Virus record (IMG/VR): IMGVR_UViG_3300011339_000112
Span: 1-29,408 of that record
Reading direction: 5' to 3' (one strand)
Origin: a virus
Lineage: Duplodnaviria > Caudoviricetes
Length of the DNA stretch: 29,408 bases
Positions 8,934 to 29,408 of the stretch are shown here, in pieces. The notes beneath the pieces are model-generated. The model saw only the letters and a list, made by a program, of their open reading frames with translations. It made no database searches and was not told the origin of the DNA. A program made the position numbers and the translations under genes. Position 1 is the first letter of the stretch. Each line of letters begins with the position of its first letter.

Positions 8934-9455
8934 CTAAGAACCTGCGGTAGTTAATTGACCTGCCACAGTAGAGTTTACCTCTGGAGCAAGAGCCGGCTCT
9001 GCACCGGTGAATGTCAAAGTATAACCACTTCTATCACCTTCAGCCGTACCTGTACCTGCGCTACCGCCTGTAAGGTCTAAGCCTCTTGTTTTACCTAAGT
9101 ACCAGTACTTACCATTGTTATCTTTAACAACTGCTACTAAAGTGTTTTGAGCCAACAACAAGATTTCGTTTCTTGTATTCGCTTGTAATTTGTTTAAAAC
9201 GATAGTTAATTCTGGAGCATAGAAAACAGTTCCGTTTTGTACGTTTGCGTTTACGTTCTCAACTAATTGAGAAGTACCCTTAACAAGTTCGTACTTATAG
9301 AACTTCTTACCTGACGCCTTAACAAGAGCGGTAATAACGCCACTTGCTTCGGTAGTTGAGGTAATATCATTTTCAGCCGCAAAATAAACTTCAGTTATAC
9401 CACCTAAACTGTCTTTGCAGTCAAGAGTATAATTTTGTGTTAAAGCGCAAGGCAT
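8934..9455 (-). CDS. Putative major tail tube protein
   Basis: 173 aa; CKDSLGGI...GTVFY...VKDNNGKYW...GTG...DRSGYTLTFTGAEP pattern; follows the MCP. Confidence 0.7.
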   Translation of the reverse strand: MPCALTQNYTLDCKDSLGGITEVYFAAENDITSTTEASGVITALVKASGKKFYKYELVKGTSQLVENVNANVQNGTVFYAPELTIVLNKLQANTRNEILLLAQNTLVAVVKDNNGKYWYLGKTRGLDLTGGSAGTGTAEGDRSGYTLTFTGAEPALAPEVNSTVAGQLTTAGS

Positions 9456-22789: not shown

Positions 22790-23212
22790 TTAGTTTTTGT
22801 CAATTTCTTTTAGTTTATTAATCGCCCACTCAACCCCACTCGTACCGCCCCAGGCATCCCACATTAAACCGCCACAGCCTTCGCTATAAGGTACGTCTTT
22901 ATGTTGCTGATGTCTTTTGAACGATGCCATTCTTGCTATCGTATCTCTACTAATAGGTTCTCGGTTAGCTAATTGTCTTGCTCGTGCTTTGCCAGTTGCT
23001 TCTCCACAAGAACCCCAACCATTTTTCTCCGCCCATTCAATAGCCCGTTTTGCATTGTTAGTAGCTGACTCTGGGTAGTCCGTATAGCTTTCCGCAAACT
23101 TGCCACCTGCTAATATTGCCTTCCAAACTTGGTTAGCCTTTTCTTCGGTGTCGTAAACACAACCCCCGTTCCCTATTCTATATTTCCCGTTTGAGCATTT
23201 TATTACTGGCAT
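22790..23212 (-). CDS. Conserved phage protein (ESYTDYP...LMWDAWGG domain)
   Basis: Motif-rich domain recognised from head-morphogenesis loci of related phages; preceded by an ATATTTA box. Confidence 0.65.
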   Translation of the reverse strand: MPVIKCSNGKYRIGNGGCVYDTEEKANQVWKAILAGGKFAESYTDYPESATNNAKRAIEWAEKNGWGSCGEATGKARARQLANREPISRDTIARMASFKRHQQHKDVPYSEGCGGLMWDAWGGTSGVEWAINKLKEIDKN

Positions 23213-24198
23213 AGTTTACTATAAATATACTTTCGGTCGGAATTTATTGCCTCGAAGTTATAATTCTTTTGGCAGAACTCAAAAAGCTTTTGTCCGCTTT
23301 CCTTACGCATAGCCTCGTCGCTTACTAAATCTTTAATATGTTTATACCAATCCTTTTGACTTTTGACATAGTGAACTGGCATATCAAGGTACGGATTGAC
23401 GTGGCTAACTACCGCAGGGTTCTTTTTAGCTGCCGTTTCTAATACCTTTAAGTTTGACTTCATAGCATTAAATCTGCTATCTACTAAAGGAATAATCGAA
23501 ATATCGCTATCTGTATAGCTGCCCATATATTCTGTAATTCTTGCGTAGTTATATATAGTAGGGTTAAGCTTTAGCCCACAAGTGAAAGCATCTATCATTT
23601 TATCCCATACAGGTTTCTCCCCGTCGTTATATCCTGCTATCACAGTTCTTATATTCATACCTTGTAAACGCTTAAAAGGTTGCCTTAATAGTTCAAGGTC
23701 TTTTTCGTGCGTTCCGCTACCGCTCCAGAATAACCTTACCTTATAATCTTCTGTCTTGTTATCCGTAAACTGCTCCTGCCCGTAAGGTAATGCGTTGGGT
23801 AGTATGTGTACGTTCTTATTGTACTTGCTTATTTCGTCTGCTAACCTATCGTGCGTACAAGTGCAAAGGTCAGCTATCTGCATATAACTTATGATTTGCG
23901 AAGGTATGTCTTGCATCATATAACGCTGATACAACAAATGGCTTGGCTCTAAGTTCCAATAGTCATCGTTATCGACTACTAACTTAAACCCGTACTTAGT
24001 TCTCCAGGTGTCCATTTGCGTTGCGGATATTTCGTTTAACATTCTATTCATTAAAACAATATCCCAACCTTGCTCTAATAACTCGTCATTAAGTACGTCA
24101 GTAATAAGTGCGTAGTCCTTTTGCATATGTACTATTGGCATCATAATGCGATGCAATCCAACCCCACTGTTGGCTGATGTTATGCAAAGTATTCGCAT
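23203..24198 (-). CDS. Glycosyltransferase, GT-B fold (GT4-like)
   Basis: SGVGLHR...P, DNDDYW, WSGSGTHEKDL and DISIIPL...FNAMKSNLKVLE motifs. Confidence 0.85.
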   Translation of the reverse strand: MRILCITSANSGVGLHRIMMPIVHMQKDYALITDVLNDELLEQGWDIVLMNRMLNEISATQMDTWRTKYGFKLVVDNDDYWNLEPSHLLYQRYMMQDIPSQIISYMQIADLCTCTHDRLADEISKYNKNVHILPNALPYGQEQFTDNKTEDYKVRLFWSGSGTHEKDLELLRQPFKRLQGMNIRTVIAGYNDGEKPVWDKMIDAFTCGLKLNPTIYNYARITEYMGSYTDSDISIIPLVDSRFNAMKSNLKVLETAAKKNPAVVSHVNPYLDMPVHYVKSQKDWYKHIKDLVSDEAMRKESGQKLFEFCQKNYNFEAINSDRKYIYSKLCQ

Positions 24199-24863
24199 CT
24201 TATATTTTTTTGATTATGATAAATGTCTTGGTATTTATCCCATACGCTTTGCGCCCTTGCTAAACTTTCGTCTTTCATTCTACGATAGTCCGTGCCGTTG
24301 CCTACATCGTGTCCTATATGTTCCGACCTCATATCTGGAAGGTAGTAATTAGTAAAGCCTGTTATTGTTGCACGTTCTCCGTAATCTCTATCCTGCATTC
24401 CGTAAGGGTCATAGGCTTCATTGTAACCGCCAACCTTGTCTATAAGTTCCCGAGTAATAAAGTTATCGCCAAAAGGTGTGTGCGTTTTATGAACCCCGTC
24501 TACAATCGGTGGCAAGTCCTCTACACAATGTATTCCAATAATGCCCGTTTTTGACACACGTTGAGAAAACATAACCCAATTTTGCAGCCAATTGGTTGGT
24601 AATAAAATATCATTAGCTAACAAACAAACCGCATCGTAATTCTCGGTCATTCTTAACCCTGCATTAACTCCTGCTGCTATACCTCTCTTTTCTTTTGAAT
24701 AATTATAATCTTTAAAAGGATAATCAAATAACCTTAGCGTGTCGCTTCCGTTATCTATTAAGAAGCAGTCCGCATCGTAACCTGAGTTATAGAAGTTATG
24801 ATTAATTACACGCTGCGTTAAGTCGTGTCTGTTTTGTGTTAGTAATAAAATTGCTACTTTCAT
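24180..24863 (-). CDS. Glycosyltransferase, GT-A fold (GT2-like)
   Basis: LIDNGSD, GIAAGVNAG, LLAND and GGYNE...YGMQDRDY motifs. Confidence 0.85.
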   Translation of the reverse strand: MKVAILLLTQNRHDLTQRVINHNFYNSGYDADCFLIDNGSDTLRLFDYPFKDYNYSKEKRGIAAGVNAGLRMTENYDAVCLLANDILLPTNWLQNWVMFSQRVSKTGIIGIHCVEDLPPIVDGVHKTHTPFGDNFITRELIDKVGGYNEAYDPYGMQDRDYGERATITGFTNYYLPDMRSEHIGHDVGNGTDYRRMKDESLARAQSVWDKYQDIYHNQKNIRCEYFA

Positions 24864-25342
24864 TATCTTATGTTTGAGCCTATTTCCCTTGCTGGTACTC
24901 CTGCATATTTAGTATTTGCTTTTGCATCGCCTTTAACAAAGGCACTTGCACCTATCATACAATTTTCTCCTACGTTTGCAAACTGATGCAGAACTGCGTT
25001 AAGTCCTATATTAGCACCATTGTCAATAATAGAATGACCGCCTATTTTAGCACCGCAACTTATTGTTACATTGTCTAAGATTGTGCAGTCGTGTCCAATG
25101 TGTGCGTGTTTCATTATAAAACAACCATTACCAATAAAAGTATCTATCTCTGTACCTGCATCAATAGTTACAAGACCTGTGATAACATTGTTATCGCCTA
25201 TGTATACTTTGCCTTTTTCTTTTTGCCAAAACTTTTTATGTTCTGCTTTGTCGCCTATAATACAATAAGCACCAATGTAGTTGCCGTCTCCGATAATTAC
25301 GTTATCGCCAATGATAGCGGTGGGGTGGATAAAATTAGCCAT
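24863..25342 (-). CDS. LpxA-like left-handed beta-helix acyl/acetyltransferase (159 aa)
   Basis: Hexapeptide repeats; IHPTAII, AHIGHD, GGH and HQF match LpxA motifs. Start moved to the ATG at 25342. Confidence 0.85.
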   Translation of the reverse strand: MANFIHPTAIIGDNVIIGDGNYIGAYCIIGDKAEHKKFWQKEKGKVYIGDNNVITGLVTIDAGTEIDTFIGNGCFIMKHAHIGHDCTILDNVTISCGAKIGGHSIIDNGANIGLNAVLHQFANVGENCMIGASAFVKGDAKANTKYAGVPAREIGSNIR

Positions 25343-25586
25343 TCTTTTTATTTTTAGGTTTAGGTTGTGCATCGTACCATTCATACAAACGTTTAATCAT
25401 ATCGAAGATACAATGACTGCACCATACTGTTAATATGAAATCTTCGCTCATATACTTGCGGTAGATATGCTCATACATTTTTAGTATGTCTAAATCTATG
25501 TTTCTAACATATCCATTCTGCACCATTTCGTAGTTAGGTCTGTGCAGATCTAAATAATTGCGATGTTCTATTTCCATAAGTTCCAC
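25335..25586 (-). CDS. Small CxxC protein
   Basis: WCSHCI motif; overlaps both neighbouring genes. Confidence 0.65.
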   Translation of the reverse strand: MELMEIEHRNYLDLHRPNYEMVQNGYVRNIDLDILKMYEHIYRKYMSEDFILTVWCSHCIFDMIKRLYEWYDAQPKPKNKKNG

Positions 25587-26608: not shown

Positions 26609-27463
26609 TTATTTTTTATAAGCTTCTTTAATAATCATAGGAGTCGTATGTCTTTGTATGACTCTATGATGCAATCTATTTTTAGTAAAGCCCATCATAG
26701 CTACAAACACACTGCTTGGCTGCATCATAACAGTTGTAAAACTTTTTACATATGTACCGTATTTTAAATAAGCGTCTGTCATACCACCCGCAGTTAATTG
26801 AGTTGCTTTTTGTTCAAGACCTACAAAAGGTATTGTCATAAATAAGTCACCTCTGTTGCCGTAAGTTACGTATGTGTTGACGTCTTCGTTTAATTGTCCT
26901 AAAAACCAAAACCTTCTATCTGTTGAACAGAAAAAAGAGTTCATACATTTACGACTATTAAATAAGTAGTTTTTAAGTAACCCGCACGACTCACCACCTA
27001 TAAAATCACCACCTTGAGCAAACGCAATAGATAAGAATTTATTGTTCTTATAGTACTCAAAAGTTTTAGTAAATAAATTATCAAGATTTTGAACATAGCC
27101 TTTTGTAATATATTGATCTATGTATCTGTATCTAAATACAGTATAATCGTCATCTAATACTAAAAAATACTTATATCCTAAGCTTTCAGCAATATCAAAA
27201 CAGGCGTTTCTTGCGTGTGTAGTAGTACGTCTATTATCAAAGTTGTTGCCTTCGTCTGTTTTATCAGCTATTGCTTTCTTGTCAAAAACTTTAATTCTAT
27301 GTTCACCAAACTTTTCAATGTACTCATTAATACTTTTATCTTCATTGTCTAAAACAATGTATGACGTACCAGTATAGTTATACTTATTTAGCATCGTGTC
27401 TGTGTAAACTTTATTAGGTCTATTGTTAGAAATAATAAACACAGTATAATCTTTATTCTCCAT
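26609..27463 (-). CDS. GREB1/TAGT-like GT-A glycosyltransferase (putative DNA-modifying)
   Basis: IISNNRP, ARN, LDDD, AQGGDFIGG, RKCMNSFFC, GQLNEDV, Q...GGMT and YVKSF motifs. Confidence 0.75.
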   Translation of the reverse strand: MENKDYTVFIISNNRPNKVYTDTMLNKYNYTGTSYIVLDNEDKSINEYIEKFGEHRIKVFDKKAIADKTDEGNNFDNRRTTTHARNACFDIAESLGYKYFLVLDDDYTVFRYRYIDQYITKGYVQNLDNLFTKTFEYYKNNKFLSIAFAQGGDFIGGESCGLLKNYLFNSRKCMNSFFCSTDRRFWFLGQLNEDVNTYVTYGNRGDLFMTIPFVGLEQKATQLTAGGMTDAYLKYGTYVKSFTTVMMQPSSVFVAMMGFTKNRLHHRVIQRHTTPMIIKEAYKK

Positions 27464-27851
27464 ACTCTTCTAAATATTGTTTTTTGATGTCATCGCATAG
27501 CTTAACATACCCGTACTCAATAGCTTTGTCAAAATCTATAATAACAAGTCCACTGCGTTCCATTAGTGTCTGCATTTCTTTAGAAGAGTGCGCATAATAA
27601 TCTGCTATCTTTTCATAATTAAAGACATTATGACGTCTTGCTGCATCTATAAGAAAAAACTTTTCGTCATTAGATACATTAGAACTTTCAATCTCTTTAA
27701 TAATTCTGTGAGTTTTTGACTTATCGCATAACTCTAAAATATGAGGCTTTACGTTCTTAGGCTCGTAAATAGGTGCTTCTATTTTACTTGAGTATTTTTG
27801 ATCGTCTTTGTTTGGTGCAAATTCTTGACCAAATAAGTTTATTTGTTTCAT
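27453..27851 (-). CDS. Helical partner of the TAGT-like glycosyltransferase
   Basis: KYSSKIEAPIYEP...AARRHNVFNYEKIADYYAH...LVIIDFDKAIEYG; overlaps the GT gene and is recalled as co-occurring with this GT family. Confidence 0.65.
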   Translation of the reverse strand: MKQINLFGQEFAPNKDDQKYSSKIEAPIYEPKNVKPHILELCDKSKTHRIIKEIESSNVSNDEKFFLIDAARRHNVFNYEKIADYYAHSSKEMQTLMERSGLVIIDFDKAIEYGYVKLCDDIKKQYLEEYGE

Positions 27852-28609
27852 TTAAAAGTTGTTTTGTTTTGTTTAATTTGCTCTTCAAAAAATAAAGCTA
27901 CTGCTACTGCTCTTGCTTGGTTCTTTAACCAGCTTTCAGTCCACTCATCTCTATATTGCTTTGCGCTTAGCATATCCATTTTGTTAGCTTTGTAAGTAAT
28001 AATCTCCATTAGTTTCTTTTTAGCTATTGCGCCATCTTCTTTAGTCCACTTCTTTATGCCTGTATTGTTAAGCTTTGTAAATACGCTCAATGGGTTAAAC
28101 ACTCTATCAAATGTTCTATTTTCAAGTAATTTATATTCTTGATAACTGTAATCTATTATCTCTAAATCTGTTAAGTGAGGTACTGCTTCTACTCGTTCTT
28201 GTGGTATCATTTTGCGTATTTCGTTTGCTTTTTTCTTGTACCTATCCATTACCTGACTAAAGTAAGCAGGGCTAAAGTTTTGATAGTGGTCTATAAAGTC
28301 ATTGGCTACCATTTGTTTAAACGCTACTTTGACCTCGTTTATTGTAAAGTTACCGTATTCAGTTCTTATCCAATCTTCTAAAACAGACATTTTGATTTTG
28401 TCTGGCATTACGTTTAAACCTACAAGCTGCATTATATAGATCAAGTTTTGATTAAGCACTGTTTGATTAATGCTTCTAATCCTATCCCCCGAAAATGCGG
28501 TCATAATCTCCTGTTCCGTAGGAAGTAGCGTGGATAAGGTTGTACCCGTCGAGGTTAAACTGTTCGCCTTTTGTAAGTTTTCGCTGATTGTTTGAAGTTC
28601 CTTTTGCAT
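27848..28609 (-). CDS. Putative helicase loader/replication accessory protein
   Basis: Directly downstream of and overlapping the initiator; YGNFTINEVKVAF and QNFSPAYFSQV motifs. Start position uncertain. Confidence 0.55.
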   Translation of the reverse strand: MQKELQTISENLQKANSLTSTGTTLSTLLPTEQEIMTAFSGDRIRSINQTVLNQNLIYIMQLVGLNVMPDKIKMSVLEDWIRTEYGNFTINEVKVAFKQMVANDFIDHYQNFSPAYFSQVMDRYKKKANEIRKMIPQERVEAVPHLTDLEIIDYSYQEYKLLENRTFDRVFNPLSVFTKLNNTGIKKWTKEDGAIAKKKLMEIITYKANKMDMLSAKQYRDEWTESWLKNQARAVAVALFFEEQIKQNKTTFK

Positions 28610-29186
28610 ATGTGTTTGAGTTGGTTATCCAATTATTTGCAGCCGCTTTCCAGTTTTTCATAGAGTTTTTACCTACTTTCCAACCATTACTTTCGTAGTA
28701 GTTAAAAAACTTTTCAGCTTCTATTTTTCCTTGATCTACTCCTATACGAATACTAAAATACTCTAAAGCGTCTTCTAATTTACATTTATTTTTATTAATA
28801 ATAATATCTTTATTTATATTTTCATTTTCATTTTCCATATGATGTGTCATATGTTTACTCATATGAATTTCATATGATGACTCTTCTTTGCTCTTTGATT
28901 TGCTTTTAATGTTGTTACGTCTTGACTCAGTAAACGTTTTACGCTTTTCCTTTTCAATATCAAGTCGAACGTTGTACCATAGACCTTCGTCATCTTGCAC
29001 AAATTTGCATTTCACTTGATCCCACAAGTGACCAACCGTATGATGTATCATATGATGTGTCATATGACCACGATTAAACTGAAGCATTAACAGGTCCATA
29101 TATGCACCTTTCTCTTCAAATGTCATTCCCATTGTTCCACTTACGTAGTCGCCTGGGTAAAATAAAAAAGCTGGGTCTTTTGCCAT
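28482..29186 (-). CDS. Replication initiator (DUF1376/YdaU-like N-terminus, lambda O-like)
   Basis: MAKDPAFLFYPGDY...EEKGAYMDLL N-terminus, FFNYYESNGWKVGKNSMKNWKAA C-terminal domain, and internal iterons. Confidence 0.8.
   Translation of the reverse strand: MAKDPAFLFYPGDYVSGTMGMTFEEKGAYMDLLMLQFNRGHMTHHMIHHTVGHLWDQVKCKFVQDDEGLWYNVRLDIEKEKRKTFTESRRNNIKSKSKSKEESSYEIHMSKHMTHHMENENENINKDIIINKNKCKLEDALEYFSIRIGVDQGKIEAEKFFNYYESNGWKVGKNSMKNWKAAANNWITNSNTYAKGTSNNQRKLTKGEQFNLDGYNLIHATSYGTGDYDRIFGG
28790..28876. repeat. Iteron array and AT-rich tract (candidate origin of replication)
   Basis: CATATG at 28836, 28848, 28860 and 28871, next to a very AT-rich tract at ~28790-28835. Confidence 0.65.
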
Positions 29187-29276
29187 AAAAAAAATAAACC
29201 CCGATAGGTACGAACTATCGAGGCTATTATTATTTAACCACTAAACACATAGTCGGTTCGTACTTCGCCTATGTAT
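29187..29276 (-). promoter_or_regulatory. Structured leader: two hairpins with complementary loops, the second terminator-like
   Basis: Hairpin 29245-29276 has a loop containing GUACGAA. Hairpin 29198-29224 has loop UUCGUAC and is followed by UUAUUUUUUUU and the AUG. Confidence 0.7.
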
Positions 29277-29287
29277 CTTTTATACTG

Positions 29288-29318
29288 CAAATATACACTA
29301 AATTTCAACAAGTTCAAT
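29288..29318 (-). promoter_or_regulatory. Bacteroidota primary-sigma promoter for the replication operon
   Basis: ATTG-N19-TATATTTG. Confidence 0.65.
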
Positions 29319-29408
29319 TTTCTGGCAAATAATTTTCATTTTATTTTTAAACCAATCTTCTGTTTCTATTAGGTTATTTGCTTGTTTTATGTTATGTATT
29401 GCGGTAGT
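29298..29408 (-). CDS. Partial gene, C-terminus of a DnaA_C-like HTH protein
   Basis: Open frame TTAIHNIKQANNLIETEDWFKNKMKIICQKIELVEI*, resembling the (DH)TTVIH helix of DnaA domain IV. Confidence 0.55.
   Translation of the reverse strand, partial: TTAIHNIKQANNLIETEDWFKNKMKIICQKIELVEI

Follow-up and report, generated by a model that had tools for sequence, protein, structure and literature searches.

An RNA leader in which two successive hairpins carry loops exactly complementary over 7 nt stands in front of a putative replication initiator gene of an uncultured phage. Comparison with its relatives indicates that it is a real, covarying RNA and likely a regulatory one. The window referred to throughout is the whole stretch of DNA analysed, the 29,408-base, 87%-complete virus record IMGVR_UViG_3300011339_000112, whose minus strand carries lysin, tail, head, terminase and replication-region genes (labels assigned by reading the translations). 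We propose that the leader works as a co-transcriptional attenuator in which loop–loop pairing would favor read-through of the second hairpin, a reading that stands roughly an even chance of being correct.

Organization of the Leader and Its Genomic Setting

The leader is flanked by a Bac_DnaA_C gene and by a gene for a 234-aa protein whose N-terminus is DUF1376-like. The order on the minus strand is a Bacteroidota-type promoter box, hairpin P1, hairpin P2 with its U-tract, and the AUG of the putative initiator. The upstream gene, whose 3′ end occupies 29298..29408 (minus strand; 142 aa, Bac_DnaA_C helix-turn-helix), has its stop codon just 5′ of the promoter box; it was assigned through the relative L055 (ORF 2461-2889; PF08299, E 1.4e-11), whose initiator is 100% identical to that of the window. 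The −7 box TATATTTG (29288..29295, minus strand) was recognized by its match to the Bacteroidota consensus TAHHTTTG, which spans −12 to −5 (PMC6847099). It predicts a +1 at 29283, and the accompanying −33-like element is only weak (ATTG at 29318-29315). A TAHHTT(T/C)G box is found in 55/55, 41/45 and 13/14 leaders of the three designs described below (types A, B and C).

Both hairpins are present, by sequence and by fold, where the preliminary description had placed them, on the mRNA between promoter and AUG. P1 (29243..29278, minus strand) folds into 10 bp plus two C-G pairs closing a 10-nt loop (29265-29256), within which lies the loop word L1, GUACGAA (29257..29263, minus strand). P2 (29197..29225, minus strand) has 11 bp and a 7-nt loop, L2, UUCGUAC (29208..29214, minus strand), the exact complement of L1. 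The U-rich tract that follows (29187..29196, minus strand) is both the predicted termination point and the ribosome landing zone, with the AUG at 29186. The terminator-like character ascribed to hairpin 2 was borne out: its stem is G-C-rich and directly followed by the U-run and the start codon, which is the intrinsic-terminator pattern, termination itself being predicted, and its folding z-score is −4.06 (0/200 shuffles as good). P1 has a modest z of −2.16 and the 100-nt leader one of −2.95. P2 is the sole terminator-like site in 27500-29408, which is weak evidence by itself since 0.7 are expected. The U-tract contains 5–8 U per 8 nt in 104/114 leaders, i.e., those parsed by script. A possible linker helix, GGUUA 29239-29235 with UAGCC 29226-29222 (29222..29239, minus strand), overlaps the 5′ arm of P2 over its bottom 4 nt; at least 4 bp of it can form in 19/19 32-mers examined, two of them unrelated sequences, and its 5′ side is invariant and, therefore, shows no covariation.

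Rfam returned no match to the leader at gathering score. Six sub-threshold matches (E ≤ 10), e.g., trpB (22.6 vs. 59 bits), were set aside as reflecting a generic hairpin-plus-terminator shape. Seventeen RNA runs yielded contigs only, with a word share of at most 0.17, and the four compared with the leader showed neither ends nor strand.

By indirect evidence, the 234-aa gene that follows the leader (28482..29186, minus strand; DUF1376/YdaU-like N-terminus) is a putative replication initiator, and its operon likely a replication operon. The protein matches PF07120 with E 4.7e-6, under the cut-off, a PHROG primosomal protein with E 3e-7 and, by fold among the viral structures of BFVD, a Lin1244-like entry with E 1.8e-7 from a low-confidence model (pLDDT 60), for which no fold match was found in the PDB. 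Homologues of the DUF4373-type gene, with which it is interchangeable, are annotated as replication initiation protein. Within this gene, iteron-like repeats rich in CATATG, both direct and inverted (28835-28883 and 29036-29079, no strand assigned), form a candidate origin; lambda O provides the analogy for an origin located inside an initiator gene. The next gene (27848..28609, minus strand; 253 aa) has no Pfam family and occupies the usual helicase-loader position.

Conservation and Covariation of the Loop–Loop Pairing

Exact 7-nt complementarity between two such loops has a chance probability of ~2.5e-4 over four registers, and comparative data across relatives exclude chance as its source. 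Relatives were gathered by protein and by linker motif, and all counts refer to distinct leaders, since many contigs recurred. All seven loop pairs are kept in 65/66 distinct close (type A) leaders representing six loop types, so the perfect 7-nt complementarity reported earlier is confirmed. The suggested extension to an eighth pair with the top G of the stem did not hold to the same extent: this pair occurs in just 59/66 close leaders, and the conserved kissing helix is, therefore, 7 bp. Among loci gathered by protein only, 38/39 loop words match, whereas in 10,000 shuffles of the partners 8.4 matched on average and never more than 19. A longer pairing between P1 and P2 arms was rejected because it is missing from the other P1 stem variant.

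Covariation was counted in 31 leaders hand-picked to span the variants, with cells counting sequences rather than events; 99.0% of the 868 cells pair. The kissing helix has Watson–Crick pairs in 216/217 cells, with compensatory changes at five of its seven pairs and no G·U, whereas the stems hold 81 G·U cells. The whole structure scores 0.371 for covariation vs. 0.157 when shuffled and at most 0.091 when slid. In P1, three of 12 pairs are compensatory and 99.5% of cells are paired; in P2, the figures are two of nine counted pairs, with four varying by G·U. Loop complementarity without conservation or covariation, named at the outset as grounds for refutation, is thus not what these sequences display. 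The earlier interpretation is partly supported: the covarying loop–loop leader with its terminator-like second hairpin holds up, and the switch and a terminated RNA of ~90–95 nt are putative.

Single-mismatch hybrids are limited to two leaders (L124 and L464), each combining the L1 of one type with the L2 of another a single step away, which may be recombinants or assembly chimeras. The two loops must, then, match within one genome although loop types reassort with flanking variants. The range of duplex strength is narrow, from −6.8 to −11.2 kcal/mol over 21 words.

A detector for paired loop words matched 282/438 redundant loci vs. one match in an equal amount of shuffled sequence; it was built after leaders had been seen, and its false matches comprise a coding-strand word in four loci and one reverse-strand duplicate. 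These results bear on whether P2 could be an ordinary terminator whose loop complementarity arose by chance or at the DNA level. L1 and L2 do form an inverted repeat in DNA, and changes could pass from one to the other by template switching; however, the complementarity is limited to the loops and recurs across 20 words and three designs. Covariation, shuffling and the detector control refute this as the main explanation, and we regard its probability as negligible. The substitutions in P2 also carry a strand signal, with G·U vs. A·C counts of 90 vs. 0 in type A and 15 vs. 0 in type B, a bias that favors a sense RNA; type C has 15 vs. 10, possibly from the handling of bulges in the count.

Three Leader Designs and the Genes They Precede

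The kissing leaders fall into three designs with little sequence in common, together 114 distinct leaders and 20 loop words. Type A comprises the close leaders with a 19-nt linker. Type B, counted by script, combines a short P1 carrying an exact 7-nt loop with a long P2 interrupted by symmetric internal loops, and type C has a long P1, a linker hairpin and a bulged P2. In all three, the partner of L1 is always the tip of the hairpin that precedes the U-tract. The spacing between L1 and L2 is 45–51 nt in 114/114 leaders, a count that took known words within 40–55 nt only and in which mismatches are undetectable by design; it is 59 in the more distant leader L381. Across words, loop positions 2 (U, 17/20) and 6 (A, 19/20) are constrained.

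A K-turn was considered for the type B stems and rejected, as box C/D-like words fit some of them (L073, L292) and symmetric purine loops fit more. Such box C/D-like words occur in the lower stem of hairpin 2 in L073, L224 and L292-L296, and the L1 and L2 words are swapped between L073 and L292.

The detector found 54/154 loci of two other initiator types; among the misses shown, some carry a bulged-stem leader and many have no leader directly 5′ of the gene. Other designs, with longer or offset complementary words, precede related initiators in L480, L488, L498, L501, L509, L568, L569 and L606.

The gene after the leader may be DUF1376-like, of Lin1244/DUF4373 type, of MAKRF type, or an inserted HNH or GIY-YIG gene. 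Because the same leader stands before such differing first genes, it belongs to the promoter and operon and not to this initiator. Its earlier designation as the leader of the replication initiator is, therefore, right in that it precedes the putative initiator here and too narrow in that it heads other first genes as well. HNH and GIY-YIG genes are recurrently inserted between leader and initiator in L082, L115 and their relatives, and could drive the swapping of leader cassettes. Tandem kissing-loop leaders with different loop words were seen in L080 (1661-1750 and 2913-3003), the first before a 382-aa gene with a Walker-A-like motif and the second before the initiator.

A Co-Transcriptional Attenuation Model and Its Alternatives

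In the attenuator that we propose, transcription would start near 29283 and P1 would fold first. L2 would emerge from the polymerase while P2 is paired at its top only, and L1 would capture it. The tethered kiss, perhaps aided by the GGUUA/UAGCC linker helix, would slow the closing of P2 at its G-C-rich base and let the polymerase pass the U-tract. Failure of capture would release a ~95-nt RNA and leave the initiator operon untranscribed. Since we found neither a ligand pocket nor a separate antisense gene, the share of transcripts that read through would depend on this kinetic race and on whatever occupies L1; the little sequence common to the designs itself argues against a ligand pocket.

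Nascent folding yields the linker helix at 69, 76 and 83 nt, the fold at 76–83 nt consisting of P1, the linker helix and only the top of P2, and the full P2 replaces the linker helix at 87 nt. Thermodynamically, the full terminator is favored (−24.5 for the 87-nt RNA, against −20.0 for that of 83 nt, with no pseudoknot term); the attenuator would, therefore, need kinetic control. By geometric estimate, the 19-nt linker of type A suffices for both hairpins together with the kiss, which weakens the tension step. The direction of the effect is taken from the guanidine-IV riboswitch, and the kiss could equally stabilize P2.

One such alternative is that the kiss stabilizes P2 or holds the RNA in a set shape that a protein or the polymerase recognizes, making the leader a termination enhancer, a stable small RNA or a put-like antiterminator. 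The designs do appear to conserve overall size, since long-P1 designs have a short P2 and the short-P1 design has a long P2 with symmetric, purine-rich internal loops, and the constraint on loop positions 2 and 6 points the same way. On the other hand, a structural helix should tolerate G·U and change more slowly than these loops do, and a fixed shape sits poorly with how little sequence the designs share. We judge the probability of this alternative to be distinctly low.

P2 ends ~10 nt short of the AUG, so the leader could equally act on translation. Under translational control, the kissed fold would alter the block that P2 imposes on 30S loading, and the U-tract would be mainly a Bacteroidota initiation region. 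The pseudoknots of IncI/IncB rep leaders act on translation. The distance from stem to AUG is 9–14 nt in type B and mostly 13–14 nt in type C, and Bacteroidota initiate without Shine-Dalgarno sequences, with structure close to the start codon tuning initiation (PMC6847099). However, A-rich sequence is favored for initiation (PMC6847099) and the tract is U-rich; moreover, it directly follows the G-C-rich bottom of the stem in all three designs, as in intrinsic terminators. Taken as a whole, this explanation seems quite improbable to us.

If the attenuator reading is true, the leader would represent a ligand-free and protein-free design that kisses the terminator loop, serving DNA replication in an abundant group of phages devoid of the usual repressor and integrase. 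The action of kissing loops on terminators is called unresolved (PMC11611296), and the 20 loop pairs found in nature amount to a set of compensatory mutants with which to study it. They could also serve as orthogonal parts for gene control in Bacteroidota.

Loop Diversity and a Possible Action in Trans

The loops are the most variable part of the leader, with an entropy of 0.83/0.84 vs. 0.46 and 0.30 in the stems (0.05 in the linker, an anchor-biased value), and diversifying selection on them is suggested. Among 80 pairs whose upstream genes are ≥98% identical, drawn from 110 haplotypes of the upstream 420 nt and not independent of each other, loop type differs in 51 and the promoter-box variant in only four. 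On the haplotype tree, loop type changes 52 times vs. 62.3 when shuffled and a minimum of five. Both P1 stem variants are found with each of three loop types.

A role in trans would explain this variation. Released ~95-nt leaders could present L2 to nascent L1, block capture in cis and raise termination, which would limit the initiator as genome copies rise and exclude co-infecting phages of the same loop type. The genomes offer a suitable background, with a tyrosine integrase in 0/23 relatives and an S24 repressor, resolvase or HTH_3 protein in 0/5 complete genomes, and trans-acting leader RNAs have precedents in the P4 CI RNA and IsrK (PMC4825925). However, the P1 variant (30/80 pairs) and the first gene (31/80) reassort too; recombination downstream of the promoter is thus general and explains part of the loop shuffling. 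A released RNA may also kiss itself and become inert, some loop types cross-pair as well as cognates do (duplexfold), and it is not obvious why phages devoid of lysogeny genes would need immunity. All considered, we find trans action unlikely, both in copy control and in the exclusion of co-infecting phages.

A broader and rather doubtful proposition joins both layers into an RNA-only system of ~95 nt for replication control and incompatibility, in which the leader would be a cis antiterminator and also its own trans antisense, with a swappable 7-nt loop word sorting repressor-less Bacteroidota phages into exclusion groups. If the released RNA does act in trans, copy control and superinfection exclusion would together rest on a minimal RNA code.

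Relation to Known Regulatory RNAs

The leader is a variant of kissing-loop attenuators and rep-leader controls and a member of none of the families tested. It resembles the guanidine-IV riboswitch (GGAM-1/mepA), where an upstream hairpin and a terminator hairpin are proposed to kiss, and a U-tract and start codon follow. The kissing loop there is proposed to promote read-through by keeping the outer terminator pairs from forming (PMC7736828, PMC11611296). Complementarity between an upstream loop and the terminator hairpin loop is found here as well. In contrast, the window leader has neither an Rfam match nor conserved ligand-binding nucleotides, its loop letters vary freely, and it would control putative phage replication genes rather than guanidine exporters, standing before no sugE/mepA-type gene.

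Plasmid replication control was the analogy first drawn for this leader. IncIα and IncB plasmids combine a rep leader pseudoknot with an antisense Inc RNA, and pT181 has an attenuator. The likeness lies in loops that pair within the leader of an initiator gene, here a putative one, and in the variability of these loops, which defines incompatibility in the plasmids. The analogy is weakened by the antisense RNA that these systems need, and guanidine-IV fits better. The window leader has no antisense promoter box, leader peptide or Shine-Dalgarno sequence, and the partner loop is the tip of a terminator. Classical antisense control of either type, from a convergent promoter, is accordingly very unlikely in our estimation: although L2 would by construction appear in any RNA antisense to P1, an antisense −7 box occurs in only 0/55, 1/45 and 1/14 leaders (L1 to L2 + 200 nt; background 17%), in a consensus-box scan that misses alternative sigma factors. 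At least five unrelated first genes following the leader also speak against it.

ColE1 loops are 7 nt long and carry U at position 2 and A at position 6. ColE1 RNA I/RNA II is alike in its fully complementary loops, stacked on stems, in replication control (PMC2602780), and unlike in that the window leader has both loops on one transcript, a putative initiator gene and no primer RNA.

The C4 RNA of phages P1/P7 is a leader RNA of a replication/antirepressor operon that acts on its own transcript. C4 is listed in a table of PMC2864571, and the P4 CI RNA with seqA/seqC and the IsrK RNA of Gifsy-1 are also operon-leader RNAs that act on their own transcript and affect termination (PMC4825925). 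The phages with the kissing leader differ from P4 CI and C4 in having no third complementary site, Rfam match, integrase or repressor; no other copy of a cognate word was found in an intergenic hairpin loop in 11 genomes. The other GTACGAAC of the window, at 9287, lies inside a gene and was discarded.

The leader family has probably been catalogued in part, anonymously, as DNAVirus_187 and DNAVirus_4653 (Fremin et al. 2023, PMC10690425), a comparison made by habitat and gene context only. DNAVirus_187 has 49 nt and 122 sequences, mostly from freshwater, with two Bacteroidetes host calls, and lies within 25 bp of DUF1376 (54) and DUF4373 (36) genes; DNAVirus_4653 has 124 nt and 43 sequences before YdaU/DUF1376 (PMC10690425). 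They differ in that both are listed as not terminators and no loop–loop model for them was found in the main text (PMC10690425). A full-text search, with most subscription papers outside its scope, found no published description of the leader.

Hosts, Relatives and Neighboring Genes

The phage group is large and uncultured, and its hosts are likely Bacteroidota. This assignment draws on the promoter box and on contigs with similar leaders whose bins are Chitinophagaceae, Bacteroidia, Bacteroidota and Lutibacter (L386, L422, L381 and L398), with the proviso that bins can err. The phage collection contained no close cultured relative, and the leader is absent from the three distant cultured phages examined. 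Among cultured phages, L614 (ON968456.1; recorded host Pseudanabaena) encodes the nearest homologue (54%) of the MAKRF-type initiator, with an HNH gene before it.

In L055, an inverted repeat able to form a hairpin is accompanied by another TATATTTG box (361-490), both 5′ of early genes (ERF recombinase, wHTH and DnaA_C HTH), possibly an early promoter with an operator or terminator. At 26609-27463 and 23203-25384 of the window, a TET-associated glycosyltransferase gene (PF20691, E 5.5e-27) adjoins a ParB-like gene, and further glycosyl- or acyltransferase-like genes lie downstream, which makes modification of DNA or virion with sugars possible.
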